Shown one piece after another: positions 1,000 through 9,546 of a DNA stretch of 22,110 nucleotides. A model generated the notes under the pieces. The model was given only the letters and a program-made list of their open reading frames with translations. It was not told the DNA's origin and searched no databases. Positions within the stretch are counted from its first letter, which is position 1. Each line of letters opens with the position of its first letter. The stretch covers positions 1 through 22,110 of the IMG/VR virus record IMGVR_UViG_2734482783_000015; one strand, given 5' to 3'. A program made the translations under genes and the position numbers. The stretch is from a virus. Its lineage: Duplodnaviria > Heunggongvirae > Uroviricota > Caudoviricetes.

Positions 1000-1574
1000 T
1001 AGTTAACCTCGCTGTATACACCCATCACGCGACCTAATGCTTTAATGTCATCAAATCCACATTCAAAGGGAACTTTGCCCCCTGCTACATGTAGTTTTCT
1101 GCCAGGCAATTTTGTTAATTCTCGAATGCTAATTGCACCTTCAATATCAACGAGCCATTCTCCATCTGAAAGGGATGCGTCTCGTTCGATGAAATGGAGT
1201 TTTCCGTCAGCGTAGACGGCAATTGGATTCGTAAGCGGCTTGCTAAAGAACTTGCCAGCAATACTCAAATCGCCATCACTAACCAGGGATTCTTCACTTA
1301 ATGTGAATTTCTCCACATTTTGGGTATCGTTATTCATGTTGCCGGTTGTAGGTGACCCTTTGCCGGTGAGTAGCCAAGCGAGATTTGCGCCAGTTTCTAG
1401 GGCGCAATGCACAATAAAGTCATAAGAAATGGAATCGCGACTGTACCTATTAGCAAGAGAGCTTGATGCAATTTCGAAGTGTCTAGCTAATTGAATTTTC
1501 TGAGAAAATCCGTAAGCCTCGCAAATCCTATCCAGCACTTCTTCATTGTTTAAACCAAGACCTTCAATTCTCAT
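999..1574 (-). CDS. cI: Immunity repressor CI (186-type)
   Basis: 191-aa ORF upstream of and translationally coupled to int, divergent from apl. The translation closely matches my recollection of coliphage 186 CI (N-terminal HTH region …DRICEAYGFSQKIQLA…, C-terminus …KLPGRKLHVAGGKVPFECG…). Confidence 0.87.
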   Translation of the reverse strand: MRIEGLGLNNEEVLDRICEAYGFSQKIQLARHFEIASSSLANRYSRDSISYDFIVHCALETGANLAWLLTGKGSPTTGNMNNDTQNVEKFTLSEESLVSDGDLSIAGKFFSKPLTNPIAVYADGKLHFIERDASLSDGEWLVDIEGAISIRELTKLPGRKLHVAGGKVPFECGFDDIKALGRVMGVYSEVN

Positions 1575-1703
1575 GTAGCTTTAACCTATTTACAAACCCC
1601 ATTTTGGGAGTTATGTTAAGCCTAAACCTAGGCAATTAATGGCGAACGTTGGCAAACAGATGGCTATTAATTGCAATCTTTAGTAAAAGGGGAATCATGC
1701 AAC
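1575..1703. promoter_or_regulatory. Lysis/lysogeny switch region between divergent cI and apl (pR/pL-type promoters and operators expected)
   Basis: 129-bp AT-rich intergenic region between divergently oriented cI and apl. Contains inverted repeats GCCTA-N4-TAGGC (approx. 1622-1635) and the palindrome ATTGCAAT (approx. 1669-1676). Exact promoter hexamers not resolved. Confidence 0.6.
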
Positions 1704-3534: not shown

Positions 3535-3816
3535 ATGGGTATTCGCATCGAAGTTGGCGACAAATGGGTTATTACCAGCGACCAATATCAATTCATCCTG
3601 AATGAAAAGAAAGTCGTTAAGTCCGGTAAAAAAGCTGGTGAAGAATGGCTCGACACTATCGGCTATTATCCGAAGATTAACCAGCTTATTTCCGGCCTGA
3701 TACACAATCAGATTCATGGCTCGGATATTACTGCCATTGATGCTATGGCAGTAGAAATTGAGCGGGTAGGGCAACTATGCATAGCAGCCATTCAAGGGGC
3801 TAGCGTTGATGCATAG
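3535..3816 (+). CDS. Hypothetical early protein
   Basis: 93-aa ORF immediately following the zinc-finger gene; its end overlaps the gene A start region. No motif recognised. Confidence 0.55.
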   Translation: MGIRIEVGDKWVITSDQYQFILNEKKVVKSGKKAGEEWLDTIGYYPKINQLISGLIHNQIHGSDITAIDAMAVEIERVGQLCIAAIQGASVDA

Positions 3817-6055
3817 CTCTATGGTTGCTTATGCTTATCCGTGGAATGCTCCACGGTCGGCAATAGCCAGCCCATATCTCACCTACGACCAACAGTATCG
3901 CCGCGACCGTATGTTCGCGGCTTTGCTGCATGCGAGAAAGGTGCTTTCTCTCCAGCCTGAGTGCGTGCGTTTTGACGTTTATCGCACCGCTGCAGTGCTG
4001 GAGCAAAATCAGGGCAGTCAACGAGCCAATGCCTTTTTAATCAGCTTCTGCAAAAAGGCATTGCCGCGTCTTGAACTGGTCGTAAAAAAATATGAGTGTG
4101 TAGGTATCAACAGCAACGTATCAGCCGCTGTTTTTGGCGGTCTTTTTGATACCCAGCTTATGCAATATCTTGCGTCACGCATGGTTAATATGGTTGCCAG
4201 ATATAACCGCCTCCCGGATATGTCGCGCGCCGATATTGACCTGCTGGCCTCTGATATCGCTAATTTCATTCGCGCTGAACTGGCTGACATTGATGACACC
4301 GGATTTAGCGAGCTTAAAACGCTGTACACCTGGTACATGCGAGCCGGTTTCATTTCCCTGCAATTCAACGTTACCCCGCCGCATTGGGAGAGGGTGACAA
4401 AGAAATATGTTGGTGAGGATGAAATAGCCCCTGCAATCACTCGCATGTTTAATGAGGTTTGGTGGCGTGGCCGATTACGACGCATTGCGGCTGCATGGCG
4501 CGAACACCTGCACATTGCCGTTGGCAACGTCAGCAAGAAAAAGCATGCTTACGCGAGTAAAAACTGCGTGACCGACTGGCGCGAGCAGAAGCGCCGCACG
4601 CGTGAATTTCTCAAGGGGCTGGATCTCGAAGACGAAGACGGCAACCGCATCAGCCTGATTGAAAAATACGATGGATCGGTCGCTAACCCTGCGATACGTC
4701 GCTGCGAGCTGATGACCCGCATCCGTGGGTTTGAAAATATCTGCAATGAGCTCGGTTATGTCGGTGAGTTTTATACCCTGACTGCGCCGTCAAAATATCA
4801 CGCCACAACTAAGGCGGGTTACCGTAACACCAAATGGAAAGGAGCCAGCCCGTCGGACACGCAAAGTTATCTCACCGGCCTTTGGGCGCGCATTCGTGCC
4901 AAACTACATCGGGAAGAAATCCGCATTTTCGGCATCCGTGTTGCCGAACCTCATCACGACGGAACGCCACACTGGCACATGCTTATGTTCATGTTGCCGG
5001 AAGACGTCGAGCGCGTGCGCCTCATCATCCGTGATTATGCGTGGGAGGAAGACCTCCACGAACTGAGAAGCGATAAAGCCAAAAAAGCGCGCTTTCATGC
5101 CGAGGCCATTGACCCGGAAAAAGGCAGCGCTACCGGCTATGTTGCTAAATACATTTCGAAAAATATCGACGGCTATGCTCTTGATGGTGAAACCGATGAC
5201 GAAAGCGGTGAGCTGCTGAAAGAGACAGCCCCCGCTGTATCAGCATGGGCGGCGCGCTGGCACATCCGTCAATTCCAGTTTATCGGCGGTGCGCCGGTGA
5301 CGGTCTACCGTGAATTGCGTCGTCTCGCCGATACCGAGACCGCGCACGGTCTGAGCGTTGAATTTGCCGCCGTCCATGATGCCGCTGACGCCGGTGACTG
5401 GGCTGGTTACGTTAATGCGCAGGGTGGCCCGTTTGTCCGTCGCGATGATTTGCAGGTGCGCACGCTTTATGAACCGCGCGCCGAGTTTAACCTGTATGGT
5501 GAGGAAACCGTCTGCATCCGTGGCGTGTACGATTCTGCTGTCGGTGCTGGTACCCCGATTTTAACCCGGCTAACGCAGTGGAAAATTGTACCGAAGCGTG
5601 CCGTTGATTTGGCCGTTGACGTTAAGGGCGCTCCTGCGCCCTCTCGGAGTTCTGTCAATAACTGTACGGGAAGCGAAAGCGATCCACCGGAACTCGATTT
5701 ATCAAAACCCCTGAATCGACGTGAAAAGCGAGAGTTAACAAACCGAATCAGGAAGCAAAAGCCAGCAATGCGGCGAAAATTCATCCACGGAACGGATGAA
5801 CAAAATGCAGCTATAGCGAAAACTATTGGCGAGATACATCTGACAACCGGCATAAATATCAGCCGGGGTGAAGCCCTGCACCTGATGGCAGGTGGTAAAA
5901 GTTGCTTTGACGGTAAATGGTTGCGAGGAACGGCCACAGGAGAAATATTTACCACGGCGCCATCACATCAGGCGAAAGTTAAGGCGTATCGGACCAAAGC
6001 TACAGAAATCCTCAATCGTGTTGCGGTTTTAGCGGAGCTAGCAACGGAAATATAA
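3809..6055 (+). CDS. A: Rolling-circle replication initiator endonuclease (P2 gpA family)
   Basis: ~748-aa ORF (ATG 3809, AAGGGG 9 nt upstream). Contains an HUH-type motif (HDGTPHWHMLMF) and a downstream tyrosine motif (YVAKYISKNIDGY), as in P2 A. Last gene of the early operon, as in P2/186. Confidence 0.92.
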   Translation: MHSSMVAYAYPWNAPRSAIASPYLTYDQQYRRDRMFAALLHARKVLSLQPECVRFDVYRTAAVLEQNQGSQRANAFLISFCKKALPRLELVVKKYECVGINSNVSAAVFGGLFDTQLMQYLASRMVNMVARYNRLPDMSRADIDLLASDIANFIRAELADIDDTGFSELKTLYTWYMRAGFISLQFNVTPPHWERVTKKYVGEDEIAPAITRMFNEVWWRGRLRRIAAAWREHLHIAVGNVSKKKHAYASKNCVTDWREQKRRTREFLKGLDLEDEDGNRISLIEKYDGSVANPAIRRCELMTRIRGFENICNELGYVGEFYTLTAPSKYHATTKAGYRNTKWKGASPSDTQSYLTGLWARIRAKLHREEIRIFGIRVAEPHHDGTPHWHMLMFMLPEDVERVRLIIRDYAWEEDLHELRSDKAKKARFHAEAIDPEKGSATGYVAKYISKNIDGYALDGETDDESGELLKETAPAVSAWAARWHIRQFQFIGGAPVTVYRELRRLADTETAHGLSVEFAAVHDAADAGDWAGYVNAQGGPFVRRDDLQVRTLYEPRAEFNLYGEETVCIRGVYDSAVGAGTPILTRLTQWKIVPKRAVDLAVDVKGAPAPSRSSVNNCTGSESDPPELDLSKPLNRREKRELTNRIRKQKPAMRRKFIHGTDEQNAAIAKTIGEIHLTTGINISRGEALHLMAGGKSCFDGKWLRGTATGEIFTTAPSHQAKVKAYRTKATEILNRVAVLAELATEI

Positions 6056-6135
6056 GCGTTAATACTCATCCATATCATGTACATACAGTGTATTTGCAAC
6101 TTTTTTTTCTTCACATTTTTTATCAATGCGTGCTA

Positions 6136-6151
6136 CTGTGTATTTATACAG
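6136..6151. promoter_or_regulatory. LexA operator (SOS box) controlling the tum promoter
   Basis: CTGTGTATTTATACAG is a perfect CTGT-N8-ACAG match with an AT-rich spacer, lying 21 bp upstream of the proposed tum start. Consistent with the LexA-repressed p95 promoter of 186. Confidence 0.8.
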
Positions 6152-6171
6152 TATCTCGTAGTGGAGGTTGT

Positions 6172-6612
6172 GTGGATAGAGAGCTAAATGAGCACGTTAT
6201 GATTGAGCGGGTCGAAATGATTGCGCGTCTGACGGCTGAAGGGACTTGTCAGGAAAGAGACCGTGAAATCGCATTGAATTTAATTGCGGAGATAGCAAGA
6301 GGCAACTTAATGAAAAACAATAATTTTTCTGTTGTTTTTTCCGCGCAGCCTGTTGATGAAACCTTTGCGAAGGAGTGCAAGGTGAGGGTAAATATCACAT
6401 TAGATAAAGACCAAATAGTCGGCCAGCCGGTGATTGATGCTTTTCAGAGTGAATTGACCAAGCGAATACAGTCAGTTTTTCCGGCAACTCGCGTTAACGT
6501 CAAGAAAGGTTCTATGACTGGTGTTGAGTTGATGGGGTTCGATAAAGATTCAGACCGCGAAGCGCTGGACGCTATTCTTCAGGAAGTTTGGGAAGATGAG
6601 AGCTGGCGGTAG
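6172..6612 (+). CDS. tum: Tum-like SOS-inducible antirepressor with DinI-like C-terminal domain
   Basis: I chose GTG 6172 (GGAGG at 6163-6167), giving 146 aa, the length I recall for 186 Tum; ATG 6199 is an alternative. The ATG 6088 start in the ORF track lies upstream of the LexA box and is rejected. The C-terminal ~80 aa (…KVRVNITLDKDQ…LTKRIQSVFP…ILQEVWEDESW) resembles DinI. Confidence 0.8.
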   Translation: MDRELNEHVMIERVEMIARLTAEGTCQERDREIALNLIAEIARGNLMKNNNFSVVFSAQPVDETFAKECKVRVNITLDKDQIVGQPVIDAFQSELTKRIQSVFPATRVNVKKGSMTGVELMGFDKDSDREALDAILQEVWEDESWR

Positions 6613-6634
6613 CTCCTCAAAAAAGTGCCAATAT

Positions 6635-6668
6635 CAACCTCATGTTTGGTAGCATGGGGTTGTTTTTT
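6635..6668 (+). terminator. Rho-independent terminator after tum
   Basis: CAACCTCATG / CATGGGGTTG stem (10 bp, one mismatch), 8-nt loop, then TTTTTT; starts 22 nt after the tum stop. Confidence 0.6.
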
Positions 6669-6691
6669 ATGGAATTACGTAAAGGAAAATC

Positions 6692-7423
6692 ATGGATACC
6701 GTAATAGCATTTTTATCTCTGGCTCTTTTTATTGCTTTTATCATTGGTCTTATCAAGCCGTCGCTGGTTAGAATGCCGAATCGTAAGCGCTCAAGCGCGG
6801 TTTACCTCGGTGGCTGTCTGGCGTTGGGCGTTATTGGCTCAATCTTATGGCCGACTGAAAAGAGTCAGCCTGTAGCGAAAAATGATGTACCGATGGTTAA
6901 AGCGGAACCGGCTACGCCAACGTTTGAGTACGCAGATAAAACCCTCAAAGAATATCGCGACGAGCTAAAAGAAACCCGGCACGAAATCGTTAAGGATTAT
7001 GTCGGTTTCAAAAGTGTACCGGTCAGCTATGTTGATGCTTTTTATGCCTGTTTGAGTGAGTACACTTTTACTAAAGATGATGCGTTAAAGCTCGATGATG
7101 TGTTGGGGTGGTGTTTCAACGACTTCGAGAAGGATCCACAATCTCTAAATAATAAAATCAACCTTGATACCTTTCAGGATAACTTTAGCGGTTGGGATGG
7201 TTCTTATCGCCCGTTAGAGAAGCTGATAAAAGCCAGCATGAATGATGATTCCTCGTATAAACATGTTTCAACGGTCTACCATCTGATTTTGAATAAAGAC
7301 CCGCATGCCGTTGTAAAAACAACGTTTCGCGGCACTAATGCTTATGGTGGAGTGGTAAAACAGACCGTAGCGGCACGCGTAAACGTGCGAACGGGTGAGG
7401 TCGATTCGATACTAGACAATTAA
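6692..7423 (+). CDS. Hypothetical membrane-anchored protein (cargo gene 1 in the tin/old-equivalent slot)
   Basis: 243-aa ORF with an AAAGGAAAA RBS. Two N-terminal hydrophobic segments (VIAFLSLALFIAFIIGLI; VYLGGCLALGVIGSILW) followed by a ~180-aa soluble domain with no recognisable motif. Lower GC than the phage backbone. Confidence 0.65.
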   Translation: MDTVIAFLSLALFIAFIIGLIKPSLVRMPNRKRSSAVYLGGCLALGVIGSILWPTEKSQPVAKNDVPMVKAEPATPTFEYADKTLKEYRDELKETRHEIVKDYVGFKSVPVSYVDAFYACLSEYTFTKDDALKLDDVLGWCFNDFEKDPQSLNNKINLDTFQDNFSGWDGSYRPLEKLIKASMNDDSSYKHVSTVYHLILNKDPHAVVKTTFRGTNAYGGVVKQTVAARVNVRTGEVDSILDN

Positions 7424-7528
7424 ACAATATAGTGACAAACGCCGCCGGTGCTGAAATTTTCAGTGCTGACGGGGTAGAACAATGAGCATCGCGAGGCGTT
7501 AGATTAAAAATCATTTGAGGCAGATAAA

Positions 7529-8191
7529 ATGCTTTGGAAAATAATATCTTTTTTACTGGTAGGTATTTGTATATTTGTTTTTGGTTTATGGCTAGGCTCT
7601 ATTCAGGCTGAATGGGCGAAACCAGAGCATAAAGATGCTGTTGCTTACTTAGCTATGATTGGAGGGTGGGTCTCAGGGATTGCAACATCAGTCGCAGTAA
7701 TTATTTCATTGTATGCAACATACCAAGCATCACAGAATAATATTGAAAAATTAAGCTTGACCTATGAACCATACCCAAGCAATGACCCTGACTTATTCTG
7801 TGCAAATATTAAAGTAAAAAATTTGCGCCCTGTTGCTGCGCATATACAAGAATTTTGCTTAGAAATTAGTGGGTTGGATGGGCAGATTAATATAAATAAA
7901 CTTAAGGCTGGCGGACTGCCAGTTAAACATGCTTTGTATCAATTAGGTGAGGTATGGGAGTTCGCATTCTATCCCCACTCAACTCATTCAAATCTAAGGT
8001 TTTATGTGGACATGAAATTGAGAGGAGAGCCAACCTTTAAAAAGGGTTTTTTTGTTGTTAAAACAACAATGAAACAGTACCGACTCAAGATGCCTAAAGA
8101 CCTTCTGGATATAATGAAAGAAAGCTATGAAAAACAAATAAAAATACCGGAAGTGTACAAGCAATATACTGGTAAAGAAATGGAACTATAA
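7529..8191 (+). CDS. Hypothetical membrane protein (cargo gene 2 in the tin/old-equivalent slot)
   Basis: 220-aa ORF with GAGG 8 nt upstream. Two N-terminal hydrophobic helices (IISFLLVGICIFVFGLWLGSI; AYLAMIGGWVSGIATSVAVIISLY) followed by a ~150-aa soluble domain. Strongly AT-rich with lysine/asparagine-rich codon usage, unlike the flanking phage genes. Confidence 0.65.
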   Translation: MLWKIISFLLVGICIFVFGLWLGSIQAEWAKPEHKDAVAYLAMIGGWVSGIATSVAVIISLYATYQASQNNIEKLSLTYEPYPSNDPDLFCANIKVKNLRPVAAHIQEFCLEISGLDGQININKLKAGGLPVKHALYQLGEVWEFAFYPHSTHSNLRFYVDMKLRGEPTFKKGFFVVKTTMKQYRLKMPKDLLDIMKESYEKQIKIPEVYKQYTGKEMEL

Positions 8192-8314
8192 CGTGTATTT
8201 ATAAGCATCAATTTGCATGCGGTTCTCTGGCTTTTTTCCTGTGCGCATCGTCAGTGCTGGCGCGGATCCAGAGTGGTCATGCAACTGCATTAAAACCGAC
8301 CCATAAAGCGGGCA

Positions 8315-8333
8315 GGCGTGGCGGGGATAGCAT
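8315..8333. other. Probable cos cohesive-end site
   Basis: GGCGTGGCGGGGATAGCAT differs at one position from the 19-nt cohesive end I recall for 186 (GGCGTGGCGGGGAAAGCAT; P2: GGCGAGGCGGGGAAAGCAC). It sits in a G-tract-rich non-coding stretch just past the portal gene stop, the family's expected position. Confidence 0.55.
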
Positions 8334-8508
8334 TGCGCGCTGAGGCGGGTATTTATTTTATTTTTCCAGCGCCTGAGCGCGTCCCTGTGGCGTTGTTGGG
8401 GTTATGGGTGAGCAGCGGGCGAGGCGAAGTGGCGACGGCGTATCGTGGCGCTGAGGGCGTTGTGTACGGTGGGGTTAAAGCCGCCACGGCGGGCGGCTGT
8501 GGGTGGGG

Positions 8509-9546
8509 TTACTCGTCGTCGCCGAGGCTATATTTTTCGAAGCGGATAATTTCTTCACCCGCCCATTCGTTCAACTCCATAAACCGCGCCTGTAGCGGGG
8601 TCAGCTCGTTACGCACAAAAACCTTTGCCACCTTCTCAACGTCGCCCACTGAGCCGACGTTCTCAGGTTGGCCGCCCATTAACTGGAACGGGATGCGATG
8701 CGCGTCGAGAAGGTCAGCCGCGCTGACTTTCTTGATATTAAAAAAATCATCCTTCGTGGCGACTTCGCTCAGTGGTACGATTTTAATTCCGTCTGCTTTA
8801 CCGTTCGGCGCGTAGAAAAACAGGTTCTTAAAATTGCCGAGCCCTTTCGAGTCGCGCATCGCCTTTCGCAGTGCCTCGACGTCGGTGCTGCTTTGCGCTG
8901 CGTCGGTCACATACATGATGTAACCCGCATGCGCGCCGTTCTGGTAATACTTGCGACGGAACAGGGTCGCCGATTCATTCAGCCAGGCTGAATTGAGTGC
9001 GCTCAGGTATTCCGGCATCCCGTAAAGCTCCTGATTAATATCGGGCTCGAGCAGGTGGAAGACGGAACCGGGCGCGAACTGGTGCGGCTGTGTGTAGCTC
9101 TGAATGTACCAGTAAACGTCATCCTCGATGCCACGGCGGGTGTATTTCGCCGGTGAGGTTTCCAGTTTTAACGGCTTACCGGTCAGGCTGCGACGCTCTT
9201 CGATAAACGCATTGCCAAACACCAGATAGTCGAGCGCAAACCGGGTGAAGTCCTGACGGGATAACAGCGGGTGCGGGATGTAGGTCGACACCAGAATATT
9301 ACGCTTCACGTAAATCGGTGAGCTGTGGTGCACGGCGGCGCGCATGCTCTTCGCTAGCCCGGAAAAGCTCACTGGCGGCTCGTACCACTGGCCGTTGTCG
9401 ATACACTCGACATAATCGAGAATATCGCGGCGGTCGAGTACTGGCGTCGGCTCACCAAAAGTGAATGCTTCCATGCTCTGAGCCGGTGCGGCGGTGTGGC
9501 TTTGGGTGCGCGGCGGCTGCTGGCGCTTGTTGCGTTTCTTGCTCAT
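8509..9546 (-). CDS. Q: Portal protein (P2 gpQ family)
   Basis: Minus-strand ORF of ~345 aa. I chose the ATG at 9546 because it overlaps the gpP stop by 1 nt (the ORF track starts at GTG 9555). Size and position (adjacent to cos, co-oriented with P) match P2 Q. Confidence 0.9.
   Translation of the reverse strand: MSKKRNKRQQPPRTQSHTAAPAQSMEAFTFGEPTPVLDRRDILDYVECIDNGQWYEPPVSFSGLAKSMRAAVHHSSPIYVKRNILVSTYIPHPLLSRQDFTRFALDYLVFGNAFIEERRSLTGKPLKLETSPAKYTRRGIEDDVYWYIQSYTQPHQFAPGSVFHLLEPDINQELYGMPEYLSALNSAWLNESATLFRRKYYQNGAHAGYIMYVTDAAQSSTDVEALRKAMRDSKGLGNFKNLFFYAPNGKADGIKIVPLSEVATKDDFFNIKKVSAADLLDAHRIPFQLMGGQPENVGSVGDVEKVAKVFVRNELTPLQARFMELNEWAGEEIIRFEKYSLGDDE

Follow-up and report, generated by a model that had tools for sequence, protein, structure and literature searches.

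A putative SOS operon of the coliphage 186 type, with a LexA box and a tum gene, in an Escherichia coli prophage

Is the prophage carried by IMG/VR record IMGVR_UViG_2734482783_000015 inducible by DNA damage in the manner of coliphage 186, or is it non-inducible, as P2 is? We examined this question in positions 1 to 22,110 of the record (the whole stretch of 22,110 nucleotides is hereafter referred to as the window), at a locus for which an initial annotation, made from the letters alone, had proposed induction through LexA-controlled expression of an antirepressor. The mechanism of phage 186 was worked out between 1989 and 1998. Induction of 186 proceeds via Tum, which is expressed from the LexA-regulated promoter p95, and a p95.tum fragment of 186 brings about UV-dependent de-repression of the pR promoter (PMC7708051). 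As summarised in PMC3121763 and PMC7708051 with reference to Shearwin et al. 1998, Tum binds its cognate repressor and so prevents operator binding.

The locus follows an ORF (3806–6055) that encodes the P2/186 replication protein A; an integrase gene is also present in the window, and the portal and terminase genes lie after the operon on the opposite strand. The 1.8 kb that we tested around tum matched the chromosome of E. coli EC23-1020 at 100% identity, and there the copy of tum is annotated in RefSeq merely as 'DinI family protein'. A blastn search against phage records aligned coliphage 186 (U32222) with all 801 bases of the query at 85% identity, and the U32222 features under the match were tum, the p95 promoter, the LexA site (which that record labels 'putative'), a terminator and orf97. 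The gene order and the position between gene A and cos are those of the 186 SOS operon (p95, LexA box, tum, t95a, orf97 and t95b; U32222 29020–30463). The features of the locus are compiled in Table 1. As a separate observation, the last ~55 codons of gene A, in the reading given by the window (5860–6055) and by phage PHB48, are in other frames in the 186 record (locus L001, U32222, ~1138–1340), and the annotated 186 A protein consequently ends ~130 nt earlier; either a real frameshift or an error made in sequencing for the old record could explain this difference.

Table 1. Positions in the window of the elements of the putative SOS operon and of the immunity region
Feature	Position	Strand	Basis or remark
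cI, 186-type immunity repressor, 191 aa	999–1574	-	71% identity to 186 CI; inferred Tum target
Segment aligning with the three pR operators of CI in 186	1574–1630		Aligned with U32222 23011–23067
Conserved non-coding block TCATCCATATCATGTACATAC, 21 bp	6066–6086		Lies ~70 nt before the expected start of p95 transcription
Palindrome ATACAGTGTAT	6083–6093		5-bp arms, central G
Conserved T8 run	6102–6109	+	Adjoins the -35 hexamer on its upstream side; conservation profile and sequence position
p95 -35 hexamer TTCACA	6110–6115	+	Aligned with U32222 minus_35_signal 29020–29025
p95 -10 hexamer TACTGT	6134–6139	+	18-bp spacer; aligned with U32222 minus_10_signal 29044–29049
LexA (SOS) box TACTGTGTATTTATACAGTA	6134–6153		Overlaps the -10 hexamer; aligned with 186 protein_bind LexA feature 29044–29063
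Shine-Dalgarno sequence GGAGG for tum	6163–6167	+	Sequence; invariant in the 3-way alignment
tum, predicted 146-aa antirepressor, GTG start	6172–6612	+	N-terminal antirepressor half and C-terminal DinI-like domain
t95a-equivalent intrinsic terminator	6635–6668	+	12-pair stem followed by a T run; terminator scan; aligned with 186 t95a 29545–29576
orf97 homologue, 243 aa, second gene of the SOS operon	6692–7423	+	93% identity to 186 Orf97; phrog_3403
220-aa ORF with two N-terminal hydrophobic helices	7529–8191	+	Occupies the place of t95b; phrog_16957 match

The proposal of SOS control rested on a perfect CTGT-N8-ACAG site at 6136–6151, said to stand immediately upstream of a 146-aa ORF. We read CTGTGTATTTATACAG at exactly these coordinates, and only 18 nt separate the end of the LexA box from the GTG codon at 6172. 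Although CTGTGTATTTATACAG is the sole match to this pattern in the 22-kb window, the bare pattern would be weak evidence alone, because 0.2 matches are expected and at least one occurred in 17 of 100 shuffles. The full 20-mer, TACTGTGTATTTATACAGTA, matches TACTGT(AT)4ACAGTA at 18 of 20 positions and is the only exact TACTGT-N8-ACAGTA in the window. Scoring with a LexA matrix, as the initial annotation had suggested, gave this 20-mer a heterology index (HI) of 2.87, against 12.4 for the runner-up in the window; the matrix is a symmetrised one made from 29 E. coli SOS boxes, and absolute values are approximate. No other strong LexA-type site occurs in the window, and the index of this one beats those of most of the chromosomal SOS boxes in the matrix set. 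Among 300 first-order Markov simulations of the window, not one contained a site with an HI of 6 or less, the median of the minima being 15.3.

The -35 and -10 hexamers of 186 p95 and its LexA box align base for base onto their counterparts in the window, where the -10 hexamer doubles as the left arm of the box, and the boxes of the two phages differ by two substitutions, both within the central spacer (TACTGTGTAT... vs TACTGTATGT...). The T8 run next to the -35 hexamer may function in p95 as an UP-like A/T element. A small ORF that crosses the promoter (6077–6187) was ruled out as a coding sequence, since the indels that relatives carry at 6094–6101 are not multiples of three.

The 146-aa ORF, which ends with a stop codon at 6610–6612, aligns with 186 Tum over 146 of 146 residues at 93% identity, and residues 1–58 are identical. 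Across its full length it matched phrog_189 (E 1e-77). That its C-terminal part resembles DinI had been noticed before, and the profile searches bear this out: Pfam DinI (PF06183) matched residues 87–145 with 65.4 bits, above the cut-off of 24.2 (E 5.8e-18), and residues 72–142 aligned with E. coli DinI of PDB 1ghh (E 2.5e-6). Profile similarity to Tum and DinI, the lack of which the initial annotation had named as a ground for giving up its proposal, was thus found. The NCBIfam DinI equivalog model (NF007893) scored the protein at 44.2 bits, below its cut-off of 111, so the C-terminal part is better described as a DinI-like domain than as the host DinI. The internal in-frame starts annotated in 186 tum are retained as ATG 6199, ATG 6310 and GTG 6382, the last of which is preceded by AAGGAG. 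Initiation at these codons yields truncated forms of Tum, the shortest of which is essentially the DinI-like domain; by analogy with 186 and with host DinI, this domain, made alone, probably modulates the RecA/SOS signal.

We collected 116 related loci that encode a Tum relative: 36 came from bacterial genomes spanning many Enterobacterales genera, and viral contigs supplied the other 80. In 114 of them a strong LexA box (HI 0.9–5.4), with CTGT and ACAG intact, was the top-scoring site in the 200 nt that precede the tum homologue. The box stood exactly 18 nt from the start codon in 104 loci, and the start codon was GTG in 112. Within the box, only the central spacer and the outermost bases varied, a pattern that fits the expectation for a site held by LexA. 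Near-identical N-terminal halves of Tum occur in varied 186-like phages of Salmonella, Yersinia, Klebsiella and Erwinia.

Some loci depart from this arrangement. Two Tum homologues have no LexA box and lie behind rearranged DNA: L037 (~1380–1500) keeps the right half of the box alone, beside unrelated DNA, and in L111 (~1370–1500) unrelated GC-rich DNA reaches the ribosome-binding site. In the split tum loci (L240, phage Midge, 2056–2475; L029–L039), a first gene of 60–64 aa and a separate DinI-like gene follow a LexA box of the same type; first ORFs of 62–65 aa are found in relatives. An unrelated short ORF comes after the box in five viral contigs.

For an antirepressor to govern induction, its target must be present. 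The window encodes a CI repressor made up of an HTH and a CI_C oligomerisation domain, with the Pfam matches Phage_CI_repr and Phage_CI_C, and the structure of 186 CI (PDB 2fjr) matched it with an E value of 4.6e-86; no Peptidase_S24 self-cleavage domain was found in it at E ≤ 0.001. The similarity to 186 CI is uneven, with ~55% identity in the linker region and ~92% over the C-terminal 52 residues. Apl and CII are 100% and 98% identical to their 186 counterparts, and the FR operator does not differ from the one in 186, whereas the pR operator region is more diverged. Thus the immunity region (999–1700) appears as a mosaic, in which a diverged CI and pR operator DNA lie beside near-identical Apl, CII and FR operator. 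Judged by its alignment with 186, the segment at the pR operators would be the switch that Tum releases. Since CI is only 71% identical to 186 CI, the action of this Tum on this CI is a matter of inference.

Taking the gene order, the box, the promoter and the Tum sequence together, we consider it very likely that the region is the SOS operon (p95, LexA box, tum, t95a and orf97) of a 186-like (Eganvirus-type) E. coli prophage. Orthology to the characterised 186 system thereby favours the earlier proposal of 186-type induction by LexA and an antirepressor over non-inducibility of the P2 style. The steps of induction, in which LexA repression of p95 and inactivation of CI by Tum are carried over from 186 (PMC7708051, PMC3121763), would be as follows. 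In the lysogen, host LexA would occupy 6134–6153 and, since the p95 -10 hexamer forms the left arm of this box, would keep tum silent. Upon DNA damage, RecA would become active and LexA would cleave itself, which would free p95 and allow Tum to be made. Tum would then bind the prophage CI and block it from the pR operators, CI itself staying uncleaved, and the early lytic operon (apl, cII ... A) would be turned on, leading to prophage excision and lytic growth.

Two other accounts of the same sequences have to be weighed against this one. The ORF might be a mere prophage paralogue of DinI that modulates RecA filaments, with the prophage induced otherwise or not at all. Such a reading agrees with RefSeq and several phage records, which call the product 'DinI family protein' or RecA filament binding protein, and with DinI being the only Pfam domain found in the ORF. 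However, the DinI match is limited to residues 72–145 and leaves out the N-terminal 58 residues shared without change with 186 Tum; it is the upstream half that reportedly carries antirepressor activity in relatives with a split gene (PMC3121763); and the DinI equivalog score falls far under its cut-off. This account would also need another SOS link, because CI has no self-cleavage domain. We regard it as extremely improbable. It is also conceivable that the module is intact and the switch nevertheless non-functional here, either through a mismatch of Tum with the diverged CI or through a defect elsewhere in the prophage. The identity of CI to its 186 counterpart, 71% next to flanking proteins at 98–100%, indicates a recombinant immunity region, and the pR operator DNA has diverged too. 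Against a loss of function stand the well-conserved C-terminal segment of CI and the unchanged FR operator, as well as the varied 186-like phages that near-identical Tum N-terminal halves accompany; moreover, the early and late genes that we examined in the window were all full-length ORFs. Failure of the switch for these reasons seems to us very unlikely.

A further question is whether p95 receives a second input. The initial annotation had pointed to a palindrome at about 6082–6092 as an additional operator or a degenerate LexA half-site. The palindrome, ATACAGTGTAT, exists and is displaced by one base (6083–6093), but the function offered for it did not withstand scoring: the best HI of any 20-mer that overlaps it was 22.6, a background level, so it is not a LexA site, and its right arm varies in distant relatives, the exact sequence being found in 56 of 116. 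Only its left arm belongs to the non-coding block TCATCCATATCATGTACATAC, which was at least 90% conserved across 100 distinct upstream sequences, a conservation equal to that of the LexA box. All 116 of 116 viral contigs with the core of the block had a strong LexA box 46–50 nt downstream. The block is absent after gene A of tum-less P2, which rules out a general feature of the gene A 3′ end. We also rejected a hairpin or terminator, as the single-sequence RNA fold was no stabler than those of shuffles (z = 0.72), and RNAalifold on 68 distinct relatives returned no consensus structure for the palindrome or the block on either strand. These properties are what would be expected if the palindrome or the overlapping block were a second operator, through which LexA or another DNA-binding protein acts on p95, and no conserved RNA structure accounts for the block otherwise. 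Several results speak against such an operator. Apart from the sequence being unlike a LexA site and the right arm unconserved, no second copy of the block was found in the window with up to three mismatches allowed, and, judged by eye, none of the CRP, IHF, Ogr/B (TGT-N12-ACA) and sigma-70 readings fitted it. In addition, the p95.tum fragment of 186 that serves as a working UV-inducible module begins in the middle of the block (PMC7708051), so that UV-inducible tum expression does not need the block in full. A second operator is therefore possible and, on balance, unlikely.

The SOS operon, as we read it, continues beyond tum. In 186, t95a is a partial terminator, and a note in the U32222 record states that expression of 186 orf97 from a plasmid blocks 186 infection. 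The gene is variable in the family, about half of the related loci being without orf97. Downstream of orf97, homology to 186 ends at ~7506, just before t95b, and restarts at ~8215, from where it runs to the cos end at ~8314. The sequence of t95b was absent from the window's operon, and a search of 7380–8600 for a canonical terminator on the + strand found none. The interval holds the 220-aa ORF instead, which is of a membrane type; its homologues, all annotated as 'hypothetical', occupy this position in 9 of 117 related loci as well as in several Peduoviridae records. Its sole match was phrog_16957 (function unknown), with no Pfam, NCBIfam or PADLOC matches; a defence-system identity was likewise set aside for orf97, the three collections giving no matches for either ORF and the homologues in phage records being called 'hypothetical'. 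P2-like phages have a hotspot of anti-phage cargo between gene A and the portal gene (PMC9122126). From its position, the 220-aa ORF may be a third gene, co-transcribed with the tum operon, and with t95b replaced by an ORF of the same orientation, a cargo gene in a defence hotspot of the P2 type may be SOS-induced. Our boldest proposal, that DNA damage switches on this hotspot cargo ORF together with tum and that the 21-bp block is the binding site of a second input, is offered tentatively, and we think it improbable as a whole.

Other features were observed between orf97 and the 220-aa ORF. Right after the orf97 stop codon, at 7427–7433, the window has a 6-nt insertion relative to 186, ATATAG, which makes a -10-like hexamer, TATAGT; a promoter scan coupled this hexamer with TCGATA at 7406, and the pair could serve as a promoter for the 220-aa ORF. 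A stable GC-rich hairpin, which 186 has too, lies at 7439–7475, and the 112-nt fold around it had a z of -3.1. It is not a canonical terminator, because it has no U run. An Rfam search of 5900–8400 gave no match at E ≤ 1.

The locus can be set beside several known systems. With 186 it shares the 146-aa Tum with its GTG and internal starts, the -35 and -10 hexamers, the box that overlaps the -10 hexamer, the t95a hairpin and the CI/Apl/CII type of switch. It differs, besides the spacer substitutions in the box, in its diverged CI, in the insertion after orf97 and in the 220-aa ORF that stands where 186 has the distal terminator t95b. The second half of Tum resembles DinI, and the halves are separate genes in Fels-2 and PSP3 (PMC3121763). 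In these phages and in phage Midge, a LexA-controlled promoter after gene A precedes first the antirepressor half and then the DinI-like half as two genes, whereas here the halves are fused in one protein, as in 186. Residues 72–142 of Tum align with nearly the whole of host DinI (E. coli, PDB 1ghh, 81 aa), and both genes are, or are predicted to be, LexA-controlled; the phage-carried ORF adds a 70-residue N-terminal antirepressor part, which by analogy with 186 would act on CI. The same logic, in which a small LexA-repressed antirepressor inactivates a non-cleavable repressor, is found in GfoA and GftA of the Gifsy phages and in AntC of N15 (PMC3121763), but these antirepressors and repressors belong to families unrelated to Tum and CI, and the Gifsy operons start with a dinI homologue. 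In non-inducible P2, the interval from gene A to cos contains orf91, tin and old and no tum, in contrast to the tum gene and LexA box present here. Induction of the lambda type depends on a self-cleaving repressor, whose Peptidase_S24 / LexA-like domain was not found in the window's CI.

The feature is an orthologue of the long-characterised 186 system in a prophage that is present in RefSeq genomes, and it brings no novelty in principle, the mechanism having been worked out for 186. The remaining points, namely the conserved block upstream and the additional ORF downstream, are small. Recognition of the operon is useful for annotation, since the RefSeq name is only the family name of DinI. 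From the sequence comparisons, this E. coli prophage should be SOS-inducible through an antirepressor and not through repressor cleavage, a distinction that is useful for predicting how the prophage behaves under DNA-damaging antibiotics.
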